Shown here: piece after piece, positions 2,456 through 30,040 of the stretch
Position numbering within the stretch: position 1 is the first letter of the stretch
How the letters are laid out: every line of letters begins with the position of its first letter
IMG/VR virus record: IMGVR_UViG_2541047931_000005
Span: 1 to 33,086 of that record
Length of the DNA stretch: 33,086 bases
Strand: one strand, 5' to 3'
From: a virus
Taxonomy: Duplodnaviria; Heunggongvirae; Uroviricota; Caudoviricetes
Notes under the pieces: model-generated
Seen by the model: only the letters and a program-made list of their open reading frames with translations
The model's database searches: none
What the model was told of the DNA's origin: nothing
Program-made: the position numbers and the translations under genes

Positions 2456-3172
<717 letters not shown>

Positions 3173-3523: not shown

Positions 3524-3607
3524 GCCCCAAGATATCTGACCAACTAAGGCCATATGCGTTTCAACGCATACCTTTCAACTAACTATTCACTATTGGAAAA
3601 TTAACAA

Positions 3608-3904
3608 ATGACACAAGCAAGTTACAGCAAGCCAACACAGCGAGAAATTGATCGCGCAGAAACTGATTTACTCATCAACCTGTCAACGCTTACCCAGCGC
3701 GGTCTGGCAAAGATGATTGGCTGTCATGAATCGAAGATAAGCAGAACGGACTGGAGATTTATTGCTTCGGTCTTGTGTGCTTTCGGAATGGCATCAGACA
3801 TCAGTCCGATTAGCAGGGCTTTTAAGTATGCGCTTGATGAAATCACAAAGAAAAAATCCCCGGCCGCCACCGAGGATTTTAAGCAAATTGATATGCAATT
3901 CTGA
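3608..3904 (+). CDS. cII: CII-like transcriptional activator
   Basis: 98-aa ORF at the cII position; HTH-like core (SKISR) and a C-terminus [17 protein letters not shown] resembling lambda CII (KKRPAATERSEQIQMEF). Confidence 0.8.
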
Positions 3905-3936
3905 GGTCATTACTGGATCAATCCACAGGAGTAATT

Positions 3937-27177: not shown

Positions 27178-27203
27178 AACCCACCGTCAGGTGGGTTTTT
27201 TTA
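27178..27203. terminator. Hairpin with flanking A/T tracts (possible bidirectional terminator)
   Basis: AACCCACC-GTCAG-GTGGGTT followed by T7 on the plus strand and preceded by an A-tract. Confidence 0.5.
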
Positions 27204-27234: not shown

Positions 27235-27420
27235 ATGACCATAGAAGAACGTCTGAACAACATTGAGTTGAATCAAACCCTGCTTGACCAGCGACTTTCA
27301 GATCTTGAGCTTAAAGATCTAGATGTGCAAATATCAGAAGCAGAAGCCAAGCTCTCCAGCTTAAACCACCGCAGGAAGCAAATCCGCGACAGAATTACTC
27401 GTGGACGCGGAGGCTGTTAA
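27235..27420 (+). CDS. Small coiled-coil protein (61 aa)
   Basis: MTIEERLNNIELNQTLLDQRLSDLELKDLDVQISEAEAKLSSLNHRRKQIRDRITRGRGGC; AAGGA RBS; heptad-like leucine spacing. Confidence 0.5.
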   Translation: MTIEERLNNIELNQTLLDQRLSDLELKDLDVQISEAEAKLSSLNHRRKQIRDRITRGRGGC

Positions 27421-27497
27421 GGTGTGATGGTAATCCTTGCTCACTAAATTTAAGGATGCGAATCTTTCCGGCCATAGGAGTAATCATGATTTACCCA

Positions 27498-28034
27498 TCA
27501 AACAACCCACCAGTTTGCCTGATTGGATACCAGCCTTGCAGTTTTTATGGAATTAATTATGCCATGCTCAAGAGCCTTGTTAGCATCCAAAATGGTCGAG
27601 TCTGCTATCAGGGATGCCCACCTAATATGGGTTCCGATGTCGATATTGAACGTCTCAACGAAGCGATCAAGATCGTTATCGAGGCATTTCCCGTACTCTC
27701 TCAATCTGGCATGGTCGGCGGCTGGGGAGGCAAAGCACCATAATAGAGGATGTAACAGGAATCTTGATAATGGGTTTGCGAAACGTTCTGAGCCAGCCAG
27801 GAAAACGATATTAGCTATGGATTCAACATTGCTTATGTTGTGAGTTCTAACGGTAACAGGGAGTGACTTAAGAAAGTTATACGCAGTAAAGCCAGCGGCA
27901 GTTTCCCCTCCCTGACTTGATATATGGATATTTAATTCAGTTGCGCCTTGAGATAATGCGGTGAGACAGTGGTTCTGAAGTTGCCCAACAGTGGCAGTGT
28001 TAACGGGGCATAAGAAATGAATTGTGTGCAGCAT
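27498..28034 (-). CDS. ClpP-like (S14 family) serine peptidase homolog
   Basis: 178 aa; ISSQGGETAAGFTAYNFL matches the ClpP xSPGGxxxAGxxIYD region; plausible Ser (ESIAN), His (LLHPL), Asp (ADSTILDA) triad positions; start overlaps the Mnt-like stop (TAATG). Confidence 0.7.
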   Translation of the reverse strand: MLHTIHFLCPVNTATVGQLQNHCLTALSQGATELNIHISSQGGETAAGFTAYNFLKSLPVTVRTHNISNVESIANIVFLAGSERFANPLSRFLLHPLLWCFASPAADHARLREYGKCLDNDLDRFVETFNIDIGTHIRWASLIADSTILDANKALEHGIINSIKTARLVSNQANWWVV

Positions 28035-28288
28035 TATTTATCATCCTTGCCATAAATCTTTTTAAGTGTCTCAAACACAACGGCCTTGAACTGCTCTGCT
28101 TGCTGATCAGCCAAGCGTTCAGCTTCGTCTCGATAGCCTGCAATCGGTGATGGCTTTGAGAGAGCATCCTGAACGATTTGTAATAACTCAGAGTTCATTG
28201 ACCTTCCGTTAGCCTCTGCTCTTAATTTCAATTTTTCTCTTACTTCCAAAGGCATACGGAAGTTAAAGTGCGGATCGTTTCTAGCCAT
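28034..28288 (-). CDS. mnt: Mnt-like ribbon-helix-helix repressor
   Basis: 84 aa; MARNDPHFNFRMPLEVREKLKLRAEANGRSMNSELLQIVQDALSKPSP... closely resembles P22 Mnt. Confidence 0.85.
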   Translation of the reverse strand: MARNDPHFNFRMPLEVREKLKLRAEANGRSMNSELLQIVQDALSKPSPIAGYRDEAERLADQQAEQFKAVVFETLKKIYGKDDK

Positions 28289-28311
28289 GCCATCACCCCA
28301 AGTTAGTATCT

Positions 28312-28569
28312 CTAACTTTCGTCTTTATTGTTGCCATACATGCATTTCAACTTCTCAACATCATGTTCAAGATCTATCAATCGTGATGCTATAGTTGCAA
28401 GGTCTAGTGCTTGAATGTGTTTATTTTTTTCTGTCCACGCTTCAAGTGCCGCGACCATCTCAGCATTTAATGAACGAGAATTAGCCTCAGCCAGTTCAAT
28501 AAGACGTTCCTTTATCTCTACAGGAAGCCTCAGATTCACTTGAGGGTTTTTGTACTTACGATCAGACAT
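28312..28569 (-). CDS. Arc/Mnt-family ribbon-helix-helix protein (paralog 2)
   Basis: VNLRLPVEIKERLIELAEANSRSLNAEMVAALEAW; ATG at 28569 with AGGA 7 nt upstream (alternative GTG at 28575). Confidence 0.7.
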   Translation of the reverse strand: MSDRKYKNPQVNLRLPVEIKERLIELAEANSRSLNAEMVAALEAWTEKNKHIQALDLATIASRLIDLEHDVEKLKCMYGNNKDES

Positions 28570-28586
28570 CGGCACATCCTGAATAA

Positions 28587-28826
28587 TTATTTACCATACA
28601 TGGTCTTTAGCGTCTCAAGTAGCGCCTCTTTGAATTTATCAGCTTCTTGGTTAGCGAATCCTTCAAGTGAGCGAGAGCCATCAAGATTATCAACATGTTT
28701 TTGAAGGATAAGCACGATCTCTGAGTTCATTGATCTGCCGTTTTTATCCGCTTCTTGCTGAATGCGTTTCTTTAAATAGTCTGGAATCCTAATCCCCAAT
28801 GGACTGATATCTCTTGCACCTTTCAT
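28587..28826 (-). CDS. Arc/Mnt-family ribbon-helix-helix protein (paralog 3)
   Basis: MKGARDISPLGIRIPDYLKKRIQQEADKNGRSMNSEIVLILQKH...; ATG at 28826 with GGAGGAG RBS; N-terminus paralogous to the divergent Arc-like ORF. Confidence 0.7.
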   Translation of the reverse strand: MKGARDISPLGIRIPDYLKKRIQQEADKNGRSMNSEIVLILQKHVDNLDGSRSLEGFANQEADKFKEALLETLKTMYGK

Positions 28827-28844
28827 TTCTCCTCCTGCACGCTG

Positions 28845-28920
28845 TGCATAGCTACACAGTGTAGGCAAAAAAATTTTGACTTTAAATAAACACGGTGTAG
28901 TATTTAGTTATCACGGTGTA
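28845..28920. promoter_or_regulatory. Divergent promoter/operator region between the RHH operon and arc-ant
   Basis: Perfect inverted repeat CTACAC-A-GTGTAG (28850-28862) plus two direct copies of CACGGTGTAG (28891-28900, 28912-28921), with TTGACT and TATTTAGTTA promoter-like elements. Confidence 0.5.
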
Positions 28921-28934
28921 GCAAGTGAGGGGAA

Positions 28935-29075
28935 ATGAAAGTTAGAGACATCGCTCCATTAGGGATTCGTATCCCGCCAGAGATTAAAGAAAAATTGAAG
29001 GAAAAGGCTAAGGAGGAGGGCAGGTCTTTAAATTCAGAAATAGTGCAGCGTCTTATTCGCAGCCTAAAAAGTTGA
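28935..29075 (+). CDS. arc: Arc-like ribbon-helix-helix repressor
   Basis: 46 aa; [46 protein letters not shown]; RBS GAGGGG; directly upstream of ant as in P22. Confidence 0.7.
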
Positions 29076-29137
29076 AGCCCCAACTGCGGGAACAGTCAGG
29101 GCTTCGGTTGTCAGTAAATCCGTGGAGAAAAACCAAC

Positions 29138-30040
29138 ATGAATAGTATAGCAATTTTAGAAGCGGTGAACACCTCTTACGTGCCATTCAACGGTCAGCAA
29201 ATTATCACCGCCATGGCTGCCGGAGTTGCATATGTTGCGATGAAGCCAATCGTTGAAAACCTCGGAATGAGCTGGTCAACGCAGCAAACAAAACTCATGA
29301 AGCAGATTAGCAAATTCAACTGTGTTCATATGAACATGGTTGCCGCTGATGGTAAGCTTCGTAAGCTACTCTGCCTTCCTTTGAAGAAGTTAAATGGATG
29401 GCTGTTCAGCATCAACCCTGAGAAAGTTCGTGCTGACATCCGCGATAAACTGATTCAGTACCAGGAAGAATGCTTTACTGTGCTGCATGACTACTGGACA
29501 AAGGGAGAGGCAGCAAATGCACGGAAGAAAACATCTGTTGATGACAGGACTCCGCTTCGTGATGCTGTAAATATGCTAGTCAGCAAAAAGCATCTAATGT
29601 ACCCAGAAGCTTATGCAATGATTCATCAGCGTTTCAATGTGGAAAGTATTGAAGAGCTTGATGCATCTCAGATACCGCAAGCCGTAGAGTACATCCACAG
29701 GGTAGTGCTTGAAGGTGAATTTATCGGCAAACAAGAGAGGAAAGTCAACGAGCTTTCTGCAAAAGAAGCAAACAGCCTTGTATGGTTATGGGATTATGCC
29801 AACCGCTCACAGGCATTATTCCGCGAATTGTATCCGGCGCTAAAACAAATTCAATCGAACTATTCAGGCAGATGTCATGACTGCGGTTATGAGTTCTCCC
29901 GTATTATCGATATGGCGAGAGATGTTTTAATCAACCATACACGAGATGTTGATATTAATGAGCCAGGCGGACCGACGAACCTTTCAGCATGGATAAGACT
30001 TAAGAATAAAGAATTACCTCCTTCAGTACATAACTACTGA
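29138..30040 (+). CDS. ant: Antirepressor Ant (P22 Ant-like)
   Basis: 300 aa from ATG 29138 ([21 protein letters not shown]...), same length and N-terminus as P22 Ant. Confidence 0.9.

Follow-up and report, generated by a model that had tools for sequence, protein, structure and literature searches.

We analysed a window of 33,086 bp, positions 1 to 33,086 of IMG/VR record IMGVR_UViG_2541047931_000005, which runs from immC through the tailspike gene and holds most of a P22-family (Lederbergvirus) prophage that is kin to the K1 phage CUS-3. The window does not reach the early-left arm of this prophage. A cI-like repressor gene lies at 2456-3169, and the tailspike consists of a P22 head-binding domain fused to endosialidase domains. 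Placed as expected, after a gp20-like injection gene and a 613-amino-acid (aa) open reading frame (ORF) without assignment and before the tailspike, is the locus studied here. It is the immI module of a CUS-3-like, P22-family Escherichia coli prophage, a region that Villafane et al. (2008) named the 'ant moron' and described as being in rapid flux (PMC2629481). The ORF map and Pfam matches place divergent mnt and arc-ant units around a 108-bp control spacer. Three tandem ribbon-helix-helix (RHH) genes on the minus strand, RHH-A (promoter-proximal), RHH-B and RHH-C, face a divergent Arc-like gene, arcA. An earlier note on this DNA, made from the letters alone, had described such an arrangement, and all four genes are present where it had put them, each above the cutoff of the Pfam Arc family (PF03869), with E values from 3e-27 to 6e-8. 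We argue below that RHH-A, arcA and three operator-like sites make up the local circuit, and that RHH-B and RHH-C are passengers which would act in trans on other phages, an explanation to which we give, as a whole, a probability of roughly 0.6.

The spacer contains a palindrome, CTACAC-A-GTGTAG, and two direct copies of CACGGTGTAG at 28891-28900 and 28912-28921, spaced 21 bp apart. Both had been read correctly in the earlier note. The palindrome (O1) and the direct repeats (O2 and O3) turn out to be three copies of one motif, with the consensus ACAC-N-GTGTAG. The pattern CACNGTGTAG has four matches in the window, all of them in one 70-bp stretch, where 0.22 are expected; 0 of 100 shuffles reached four. 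O1 is kept in three variants of the same control-region type (A type, defined below) despite different flanks, and in one of these the centre base of O2 is G or C with the arms kept. Over the A type as a whole the centre base can be A, G or C, and diverged variants conserve the sites while their flanks change. A varying centre base between kept arms is as expected for a symmetric operator. Compared with the 17-mer of P22 Omnt, O1 has the same base at 10 of 17 positions and keeps the CAC-N-GTG core, with symmetric changes at positions 3/15 and 5/13. A Pant-like promoter is the sole promoter-like match on the plus strand between 27400 and 29300, in a position equivalent to that of P22 Pant.

Downstream of arcA, the hairpin that had been noticed between arc and ant, together with the suggestion of a sar-type antisense RNA there, is borne out. 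The hairpin is the terminator stem of sar, with 14 pairs followed by a T run on the minus strand, and the RNA matches RF00262 over its full length at 95.6 bits against a gathering score of 43. Its fold has two hairpins (z = -5.15), and it is complementary to the arc-ant spacer and the ant ribosome-binding site. The sar gene and the 5' end of ant are near-identical to those of P22 and of epsilon34, in which sar is annotated, with the similarity beginning exactly at the arc stop codon. Over ant as a whole, DNA identity is 96% to epsilon34 and 84% to P22. The positions of all features are collected in the table.

Table. Features of the immI region, in order of position in the window
Feature	Position	Strand	Basis or remark
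Bidirectional terminator-like hairpin	27178-27197		8-bp stem, T runs on either strand; may end the leftward operon
ClpP-like gene, 178 aa	27498-28034	-	Pfam CLP_protease, E 2e-11; last gene of the putative leftward operon
RHH-C, P22-type Mnt, 84 aa	28034-28288	-	Pfam Arc and Repressor_Mnt
RHH-C leader with Shine-Dalgarno, B-to-C junction	28289-28311	-	no promoter or operator kept
RHH-B, 85 aa	28312-28569	-	Pfam Arc, E 3e-10
RHH-B leader, A-to-B junction	28570-28596	-	overlaps the RHH-A stop codon
RHH-A, promoter-proximal, 79 aa	28587-28826	-	Pfam Arc, E 6e-8
O1, palindrome CTACAC-A-GTGTAG	28852-28864		Omnt-like; upstream of the Pant -35
Candidate leftward promoter TTTAAA-17-TACACT	28858-28886	-	8/12; read by eye
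Pant-like promoter TTGACT-16-TAGTAT	28876-28903	+	consensus scan
O2, ACAC-G-GTGTAG	28890-28900		overlaps Pant spacer and -10; position of P22 Oarc
O3, TCAC-G-GTGTAG	28911-28921		just past the Pant -10; position of P22 Omnt
arcA, Arc-like, 46 aa	28935-29075	+	Pfam Arc, E 5e-13; first gene of the ant operon
sar antisense RNA	29070-29137	-	Rfam RF00262; 3' hairpin at 29074-29105
ant, antirepressor, 300 aa	29138-30040	+	P22_AR_N, E 4e-45; P22_AR_C, E 4e-27

In an alignment of the four RHH proteins, the recognition strands read RDISPLGIRIP in RHH-A, KNPQVNLRLP in RHH-B and RNDPHFNFRMP in RHH-C, and RHH-A and Arc have RDI(S/A)PLGIRIP in common. RHH-A matches the solved Mnt structure 1MNT over residues 4-74 (E 4.6e-5). 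Its identity to RHH-C is 36% along the whole protein, C-terminal helix included; the two C-terminal segments align well (ADxxAxxFKxxxxETLKxxYGK), and a structure model of RHH-A predicts a helix at residues 62-77. At the positions of Arg2, His6, Asn8 and Arg10, which we take to be the recognition residues of P22 Mnt, RHH-A carries Arg, Pro, Gly and Arg, a set other than that of P22 Mnt. A His6-to-Pro change is reported to be the classical altered-specificity change in Mnt (Youderian et al. 1983). The arcA product is a 46-aa RHH protein without a C-terminal extension, encoded directly upstream of sar and ant as an Arc should be; it scores 33.2 bits against NCBIfam YlcI_YnfO_N (cutoff 30) and is 57% identical to RHH-A over 35 aa. 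At the positions of Gln9, Asn11 and Arg13 of P22 Arc it has Pro, Gly and Arg, again a different set. The likeness extends to the DNA, where 28783-28834 and 28927-28975 form an inverted repeat (15 nt at 93%, 32 nt at 78%) that spans the ribosome-binding sites, the start codons and the first 17 or so codons of RHH-A and arcA. This suggests that the recognition module was duplicated or gene-converted between the two genes.

Knight and Sauer (1989) reportedly showed that operator specificity in P22 Arc and Mnt is set by the N-terminal residues. Because the recognition strand is common to RHH-A and Arc, both should bind the same sites, O1-O3, and we infer that the two proteins own these sites with a single specificity. 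In this scheme the prophage would express RHH-A, a Mnt-like repressor that oligomerises through its C-terminal helix, and the ant transcript would supply the 46-aa Arc-like protein. Since the ant promoter is covered by O2 and O3, RHH-A would keep ant off in the lysogen. Arc would shut ant off after a burst during infection, O1, lying over the likely leftward promoter, would give autoregulation, and sar would add antisense control of ant translation, as in P22.

To place this arrangement we surveyed about 240 related immI loci, drawn from exact-protein contexts, three viral-contig scans and annotated genomes, with all RHH ORFs called in each. The type of the proximal Mnt, the type of arc and the type of operator co-vary as discrete types. 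The P22 type has arcP, a proximal C gene and ATAGGTCCAC-G-GTGGACCTAT (Omnt being GGTCCACGGTGGACC) plus Oarc; the B or CUS-3 type has arcB, a proximal B gene and ATGCGTACC-like sites; the D type has arcD, a proximal D gene and GATATC-type sites; and the A type, that of the window, has arcA, a proximal A gene and CACNGTGTAG sites. Every RHH-A gene is accompanied by the arcA type and CACNGTGTAG sites. Where further Mnt genes exist, they are invariably distal and heterotypic, the combinations being B,C (as in CUS-3), A,B, A,B,C, B,F and B,x. One A-type variant (IMGVR_UViG_2675903606_000016) carries mutations in the Pant -35 (now TTCGACT) and in O2 (now CACGGTATAG), together with an Arg-to-His change in the recognition strand of Arc, and is possibly a decaying immI. 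The B-type regions (survey loci L162 to L185 and others) keep their ATGCGTACC-like sites though RHH-B is paired there with at least four Arc-like N-termini (KVKTLRMP, KAQSPSSVRFP, KVAEPVSVRMP and KVSKPSSVRFP). Three of them (L182 to L184) have a third ATGCGTACC-like copy in place of the usual upstream GTAGGTATC element. We regard the ATGCGTACC-like sites as a putative, loosely defined B-type operator.

The two genes behind RHH-A belong by these measures to other types. RHH-C is 77% identical to P22 Mnt, its recognition strand ARNDPHFNFRMP keeps Arg2, His6, Asn8 and Arg10, and it matches 1MNT at E 3e-37, PF11423 at E 4e-12 and 1QEY at E 4e-5. In three viral contigs an identical copy of it accompanies a P22-type arc and operator, with no other Mnt present. 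RHH-B has the same sequence as the product of the second CUS-3 gene annotated 'mnt' (ECRS218_0005) and in many loci is the sole or promoter-proximal Mnt beside the arcB type and ATGCGTACC sites; it is the sole one, for instance, in E. coli O104:H4 C227-11. At three strand positions it has Gln, Asn and Arg, the P22 Arc pattern, preceded by Tyr, Lys and Asn, and so does not show the Mnt residues. For all three proteins 1MNT is the best solved match. RHH-A and RHH-B have no match to PF11423, yet both align to RHH-C through the C-terminus, that of RHH-B being much more divergent, and single-sequence models predict a C-terminal helix in both (predicted local distance difference test scores of 68-74). 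A search of the whole window at up to 4 mismatches (Omnt taken as the 17-mer) returned neither P22 Omnt (GGTCCACGGTGGACC) nor Oarc, and the window has no B-type sites. Nor is there a P22 operator in the complete 40.2-kb genome of CUS-3, despite the P22-type Mnt encoded there. With the P22 operators absent and ACAC-N-GTGTAG in their stead, the window has a different immunity specificity in the same kind of region. As judged from their sequences, RHH-B and RHH-C are complete Mnt-type repressors of CUS-3/B-type and P22-type immI, respectively, and would stand outside the local circuit.

The junctions within the array point to how it arose. Homology to B-type leaders begins at TGGTAAA, in the last codons of RHH-A (window about 28591-28596); BLAST matches to B,C genomes end at 28596, and those to A-type genomes begin at 28591. 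The leader of RHH-C is homologous to that of P22 mnt from ACTAACTTGG onward, a point immediately past the Pmnt region of P22. Wherever they are found the junctions are identical, 17 nt from A to B and 23 nt from B to C, the latter also in CUS-3. The conserved C-terminal codons (...TLKxMYGK...) and the sar/ant region would be the cassette boundaries, with the right edge at the arc stop codon and sar 3' end, and the trio has the form expected of recombination within RHH-B between A,B and B,C arrays. On this evidence the array is a nested recombination product (A plus B,C) that recurs in several prophage backgrounds. RHH-B and RHH-C would have been left promoterless behind RHH-A by successive cassette replacements, and would be co-transcribed with RHH-A and the ClpP-like gene.

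The full trio was not in any complete RefSeq E. coli genome or in any isolated phage of the phage collection. In the larger assembly collection it occurs in at least six distinct contexts, beside at least three tailspike types. Among 5,426 complete E. coli genomes, P22-type control regions were counted in 225, B-type in 111 and A-type in 19. The strain MS 196-1 (NZ_CP146681.1, 3135376-3141735) carries a lambda-like siphovirus prophage in which tail genes L and K (C40 peptidase) flank a complete module, with ClpP, RHH-B and RHH-A on one side and arcA and ant on the other; the immI module thus moves outside P22-like phages. The second gene there, considered as a Mnt, was rejected as such, and is RHH-B with a different tail. 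An apparent truncation of the third gene to 54 aa in two other loci was likewise set aside, because it reflects the start chosen by the gene caller and the full 84-aa ORF is intact.

The leftward unit ends with a gene for a ClpP-like protein, whose start overlaps the RHH-C stop codon (TAATG). The best solved relative of the protein is PpClpP1 (PDB 9UXT, E 1.8e-35); the catalytic Ser and His line up between the two and are conserved. PpClpP1, a ClpP paralogue truncated at its N-terminus, has a Ser-His-Pro triad and forms mixed tetradecamers with the canonical ClpP of the host (PMC12900304). In many immI regions the ClpP-like gene overlaps the stop codon of the final Mnt-type gene, be it A', B', C or D, and it is therefore probably expressed from the prophage. 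PADLOC returned no match for any of the RHH genes, the ClpP-like gene or ant. A consensus scan of 27400-29300 found no promoter or terminator inside the A-B-C array or between the array and the ClpP-like gene, and RHH-B and RHH-C each keep their own Shine-Dalgarno sequence and leader. The simplest reading is that A, B, C and the ClpP-like gene are one co-transcribed operon. It is plausible that the operon controls the ClpP-like gene, as had been proposed. For its promoter we can offer TTTAAA-17-TACACT, whose -10 lies inside O1 and whose TACACT is found at the same position in the otherwise different D-type control region, though this is a weak candidate, put forward by inference only.

Because RHH-B and RHH-C have no target in their own phage, they most likely act in trans, repressing the ant promoters of co-resident or superinfecting heterotypic phages. 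P22 Ant inactivates the repressors of L, lambda and 21, and antirepressors cross-induce heteroimmune prophages, as in the Gifsy and Fels phages (Lemire et al. 2011, PMC3121763). Trans repression would protect the main repressor of the prophage from such a foreign, broad-spectrum antirepressor, and targets exist, since P22-type and B-type control regions are common in E. coli. The alternative that we take most seriously is that B and C are recombination leftovers with no role here, old mnt genes that stayed in place whenever the arc, operator and proximal-mnt cassette was exchanged, intact through recency or refreshed by recombination with functional alleles. Each junction type resembles a single microhomology event that was later inherited, the 17-nt and 23-nt spacers being the same everywhere, which fits such carry-over, as does the documented flux of the region (PMC2629481). 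Phage L, moreover, has a gene resembling mnt but neither ant nor arc, and those who described it regard the gene as possibly a remnant (PMC8022706). What neutral leftovers do not readily account for is that all 108 of the P22-type Mnt copies found are full length, none being truncated or frameshifted, and that the recognition strand is invariant among the 12 distinct stack-resident alleles. Nor would they explain why, over the surveyed loci, only genes of the Mnt-type, prophage-expressed class accumulate and never spare arc genes, operators or ant fragments, why the passengers retain Shine-Dalgarno sequences and leaders in an operon without an internal terminator, or why the stack recurs across several phage backgrounds. 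We find carry-over less likely than trans repression, yet a serious rival to it.

Several points do weigh against our explanation. The ratio of nonsynonymous to synonymous polymorphism (pN/pS) of the stack-resident C alleles is low, 0.05 in the RHH domain, and we considered it as proof of passenger function and rejected it: the RHH parts of these alleles are 98.5-100% identical to those of sole-Mnt alleles elsewhere, so that gene flow from the latter could keep the copies intact, and the ratio is not creditable to the stacked state. The same near-identity speaks for carry-over. Chance recombination, too, would be expected to leave passengers of the commonest types. The agreement of O1 with P22 Omnt, CAC-N-GTG core included, makes weak binding of RHH-C to the local sites possible, and the scan for RHH-B and RHH-C sites covered a window that lacks the early-left arm of the prophage. 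Finally, the consensus scan of the minus strand of the spacer returned no leftward promoter, and the proposed operon structure comes from spacing.

The earlier note had seen in the array a more elaborate repressor circuit, with the three paralogs acting on the local operators to control ant and the ClpP-like gene. Part of this stands, in that the locus is a P22-type immI with extra Mnt-like genes and operator-like repeats around Pant. A joint circuit, in which three repressors and Arc work together on O1-O3, for instance through graded affinities that switch ant and the ClpP-like gene, has in its favour the presence of three sites and three tandem genes, the resemblance of O1 to Omnt, and the fact that the middle paralogs do not lack RHH contact residues, all three being intact RHH proteins with putative Mnt-like C-terminal helices. 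The same three sites, however, occur without change where RHH-A is the only such gene or is joined by RHH-B only, and the operator type follows only the proximal gene and arc. RHH-B and RHH-C have other recognition strands and their own operator sets elsewhere, where each occurs as the sole Mnt; those operators are absent here, and nested cassette recombination explains the array. The symmetric 3/15 and 5/13 changes in the operator, together with His6 to Pro and Asn8 to Gly in RHH-A, are the pattern of a changed rather than a shared specificity. Sequence suggests, in short, something close to binding by a single repressor, in the form of one specificity common to RHH-A and Arc, and we find the joint circuit quite improbable. 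Mnt forms its tetramer through the C-terminal helix (PDB 1QEY), which raises the idea of hetero-tetramers of RHH-A, RHH-B and RHH-C that tune or poison RHH-A or bridge unlike half-sites. The good alignment between the C-terminal segments of A and C speaks for this. All half-sites in the spacer are of the A type, however, with no hybrid arrangement, and the divergence of the RHH-B C-terminus argues against it too; of the explanations weighed here we give mixed oligomers the least credence.

A broader idea, which we put forward tentatively and would not yet bet on, is that temperate phages build a 'stacked immunity' behind their own maintenance repressor, a growing promoterless array of Mnt genes from other immI types that is a functional record of cassette swaps, silences the ant genes of the commonest competitors and blocks cross-induction. 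If RHH-B and RHH-C do act in trans, prophages would widen their immunity to the antirepressor switches of others by keeping old repressors, and such trans-immunity would bear on how the prophages of a polylysogen avoid mutual induction. Should the two genes be inert, the locus would be no more than a clear illustration of how cassettes recombine in the 'ant moron'. Either way, P22 immI, Arc and Mnt are textbook models of repressor-operator recognition, and the altered residues at the His6 and Asn8 positions, to which symmetric differences in the operator correspond, make a ready natural test of RHH recognition rules.

Some observations concern the surroundings of the module. The hairpin at the left end of the table separates the region of the ClpP-like gene from upstream accessory genes, and a 61-aa ORF with a weak XhlA-like match (27235-27420, plus strand) lies between the hairpin and the ClpP-like gene. 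About 1.5 kb beyond the ClpP-like or Mnt genes, in the variable DNA that separates the injection gene from immI, related loci have a gene of 147-149 aa with a SocA_Panacea domain, and CUS-3-type loci have a YafO_toxin-domain gene; the loci concerned are four of those surveyed. This stretch seems to collect toxin-antitoxin or defence-like cargo.

A literature search for descriptions of several mnt genes yielded Villafane et al. (2008) and the phage L paper, and nothing else. The two-mnt annotation of CUS-3 and the mosaicism of the region are already known. In the literature searched we did not find described an A-type specificity with a recognition strand common to Mnt-like and Arc-like proteins, the ordering of cognate proximal and heterotypic distal genes, the stack as an extension of immunity, or a prophage with spare repressors for the ant promoters of other phages.

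The immI regions of P22 and epsilon34 share with the window their gene order, orientation and place before the tailspike gene, and P22 also has one operator in the Pant spacer and another just past the -10. P22, however, has one mnt and separate operators for Mnt and Arc, whereas the window has three mnt-type genes and one motif in three copies, the best of which, O1, lies upstream of the -35. The local Arc differs from P22 Arc at the recognition positions given above and has its recognition strand in common with the proximal Mnt-like protein. The 'ant moron' of CUS-3 (Villafane et al. 2008; King et al. 2007) belongs to the same prophage family, with a K1 endosialidase tailspike and two annotated mnt genes. 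The B,C pair of the window is the CUS-3 pair, since in both an identical RHH-B precedes a P22-type Mnt, with the same 23 nt at the junction. In CUS-3, though, RHH-B is promoter-proximal, beside its own operators and a different 46-aa Arc; in the window RHH-A, O1-O3 and arcA replace that control cassette and push B and C one place down, and the ClpP-like gene takes the place of the downstream genes of CUS-3. The 2008 comparison described CUS-3 as apparently without arc (PMC2629481). Its genome (CP000711.1) has an unannotated 46-aa ORF of the Arc family and then a 67-aa Cys-rich ORF (3581-3921 of survey locus L002, inside 'bsq2') between the mnt genes and ant, and the NCBI annotation pipeline PGAP now annotates the equivalent of the former in E. 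coli genomes.

Silencing a foreign ant would pay, because a foreign antirepressor can induce a resident prophage (PMC3121763). In the Gifsy and Fels cross-talk it is the antirepressors that act in trans, whereas here it would be spare repressors directed at foreign ant promoters. A parallel for the array as a whole may be found among the lambdoid phages. There, in the mosaicism of immunity cassettes, repressor, operators and cro are swapped as a unit between conserved flanks. The window is alike in that recognition surface and operators co-vary, with boundaries at the Mnt C-terminus and leader on the left and at sar/ant on the right. In lambdoid immC swaps, however, the old repressor is lost, whereas here the old maintenance repressors are kept in tandem behind the new one.

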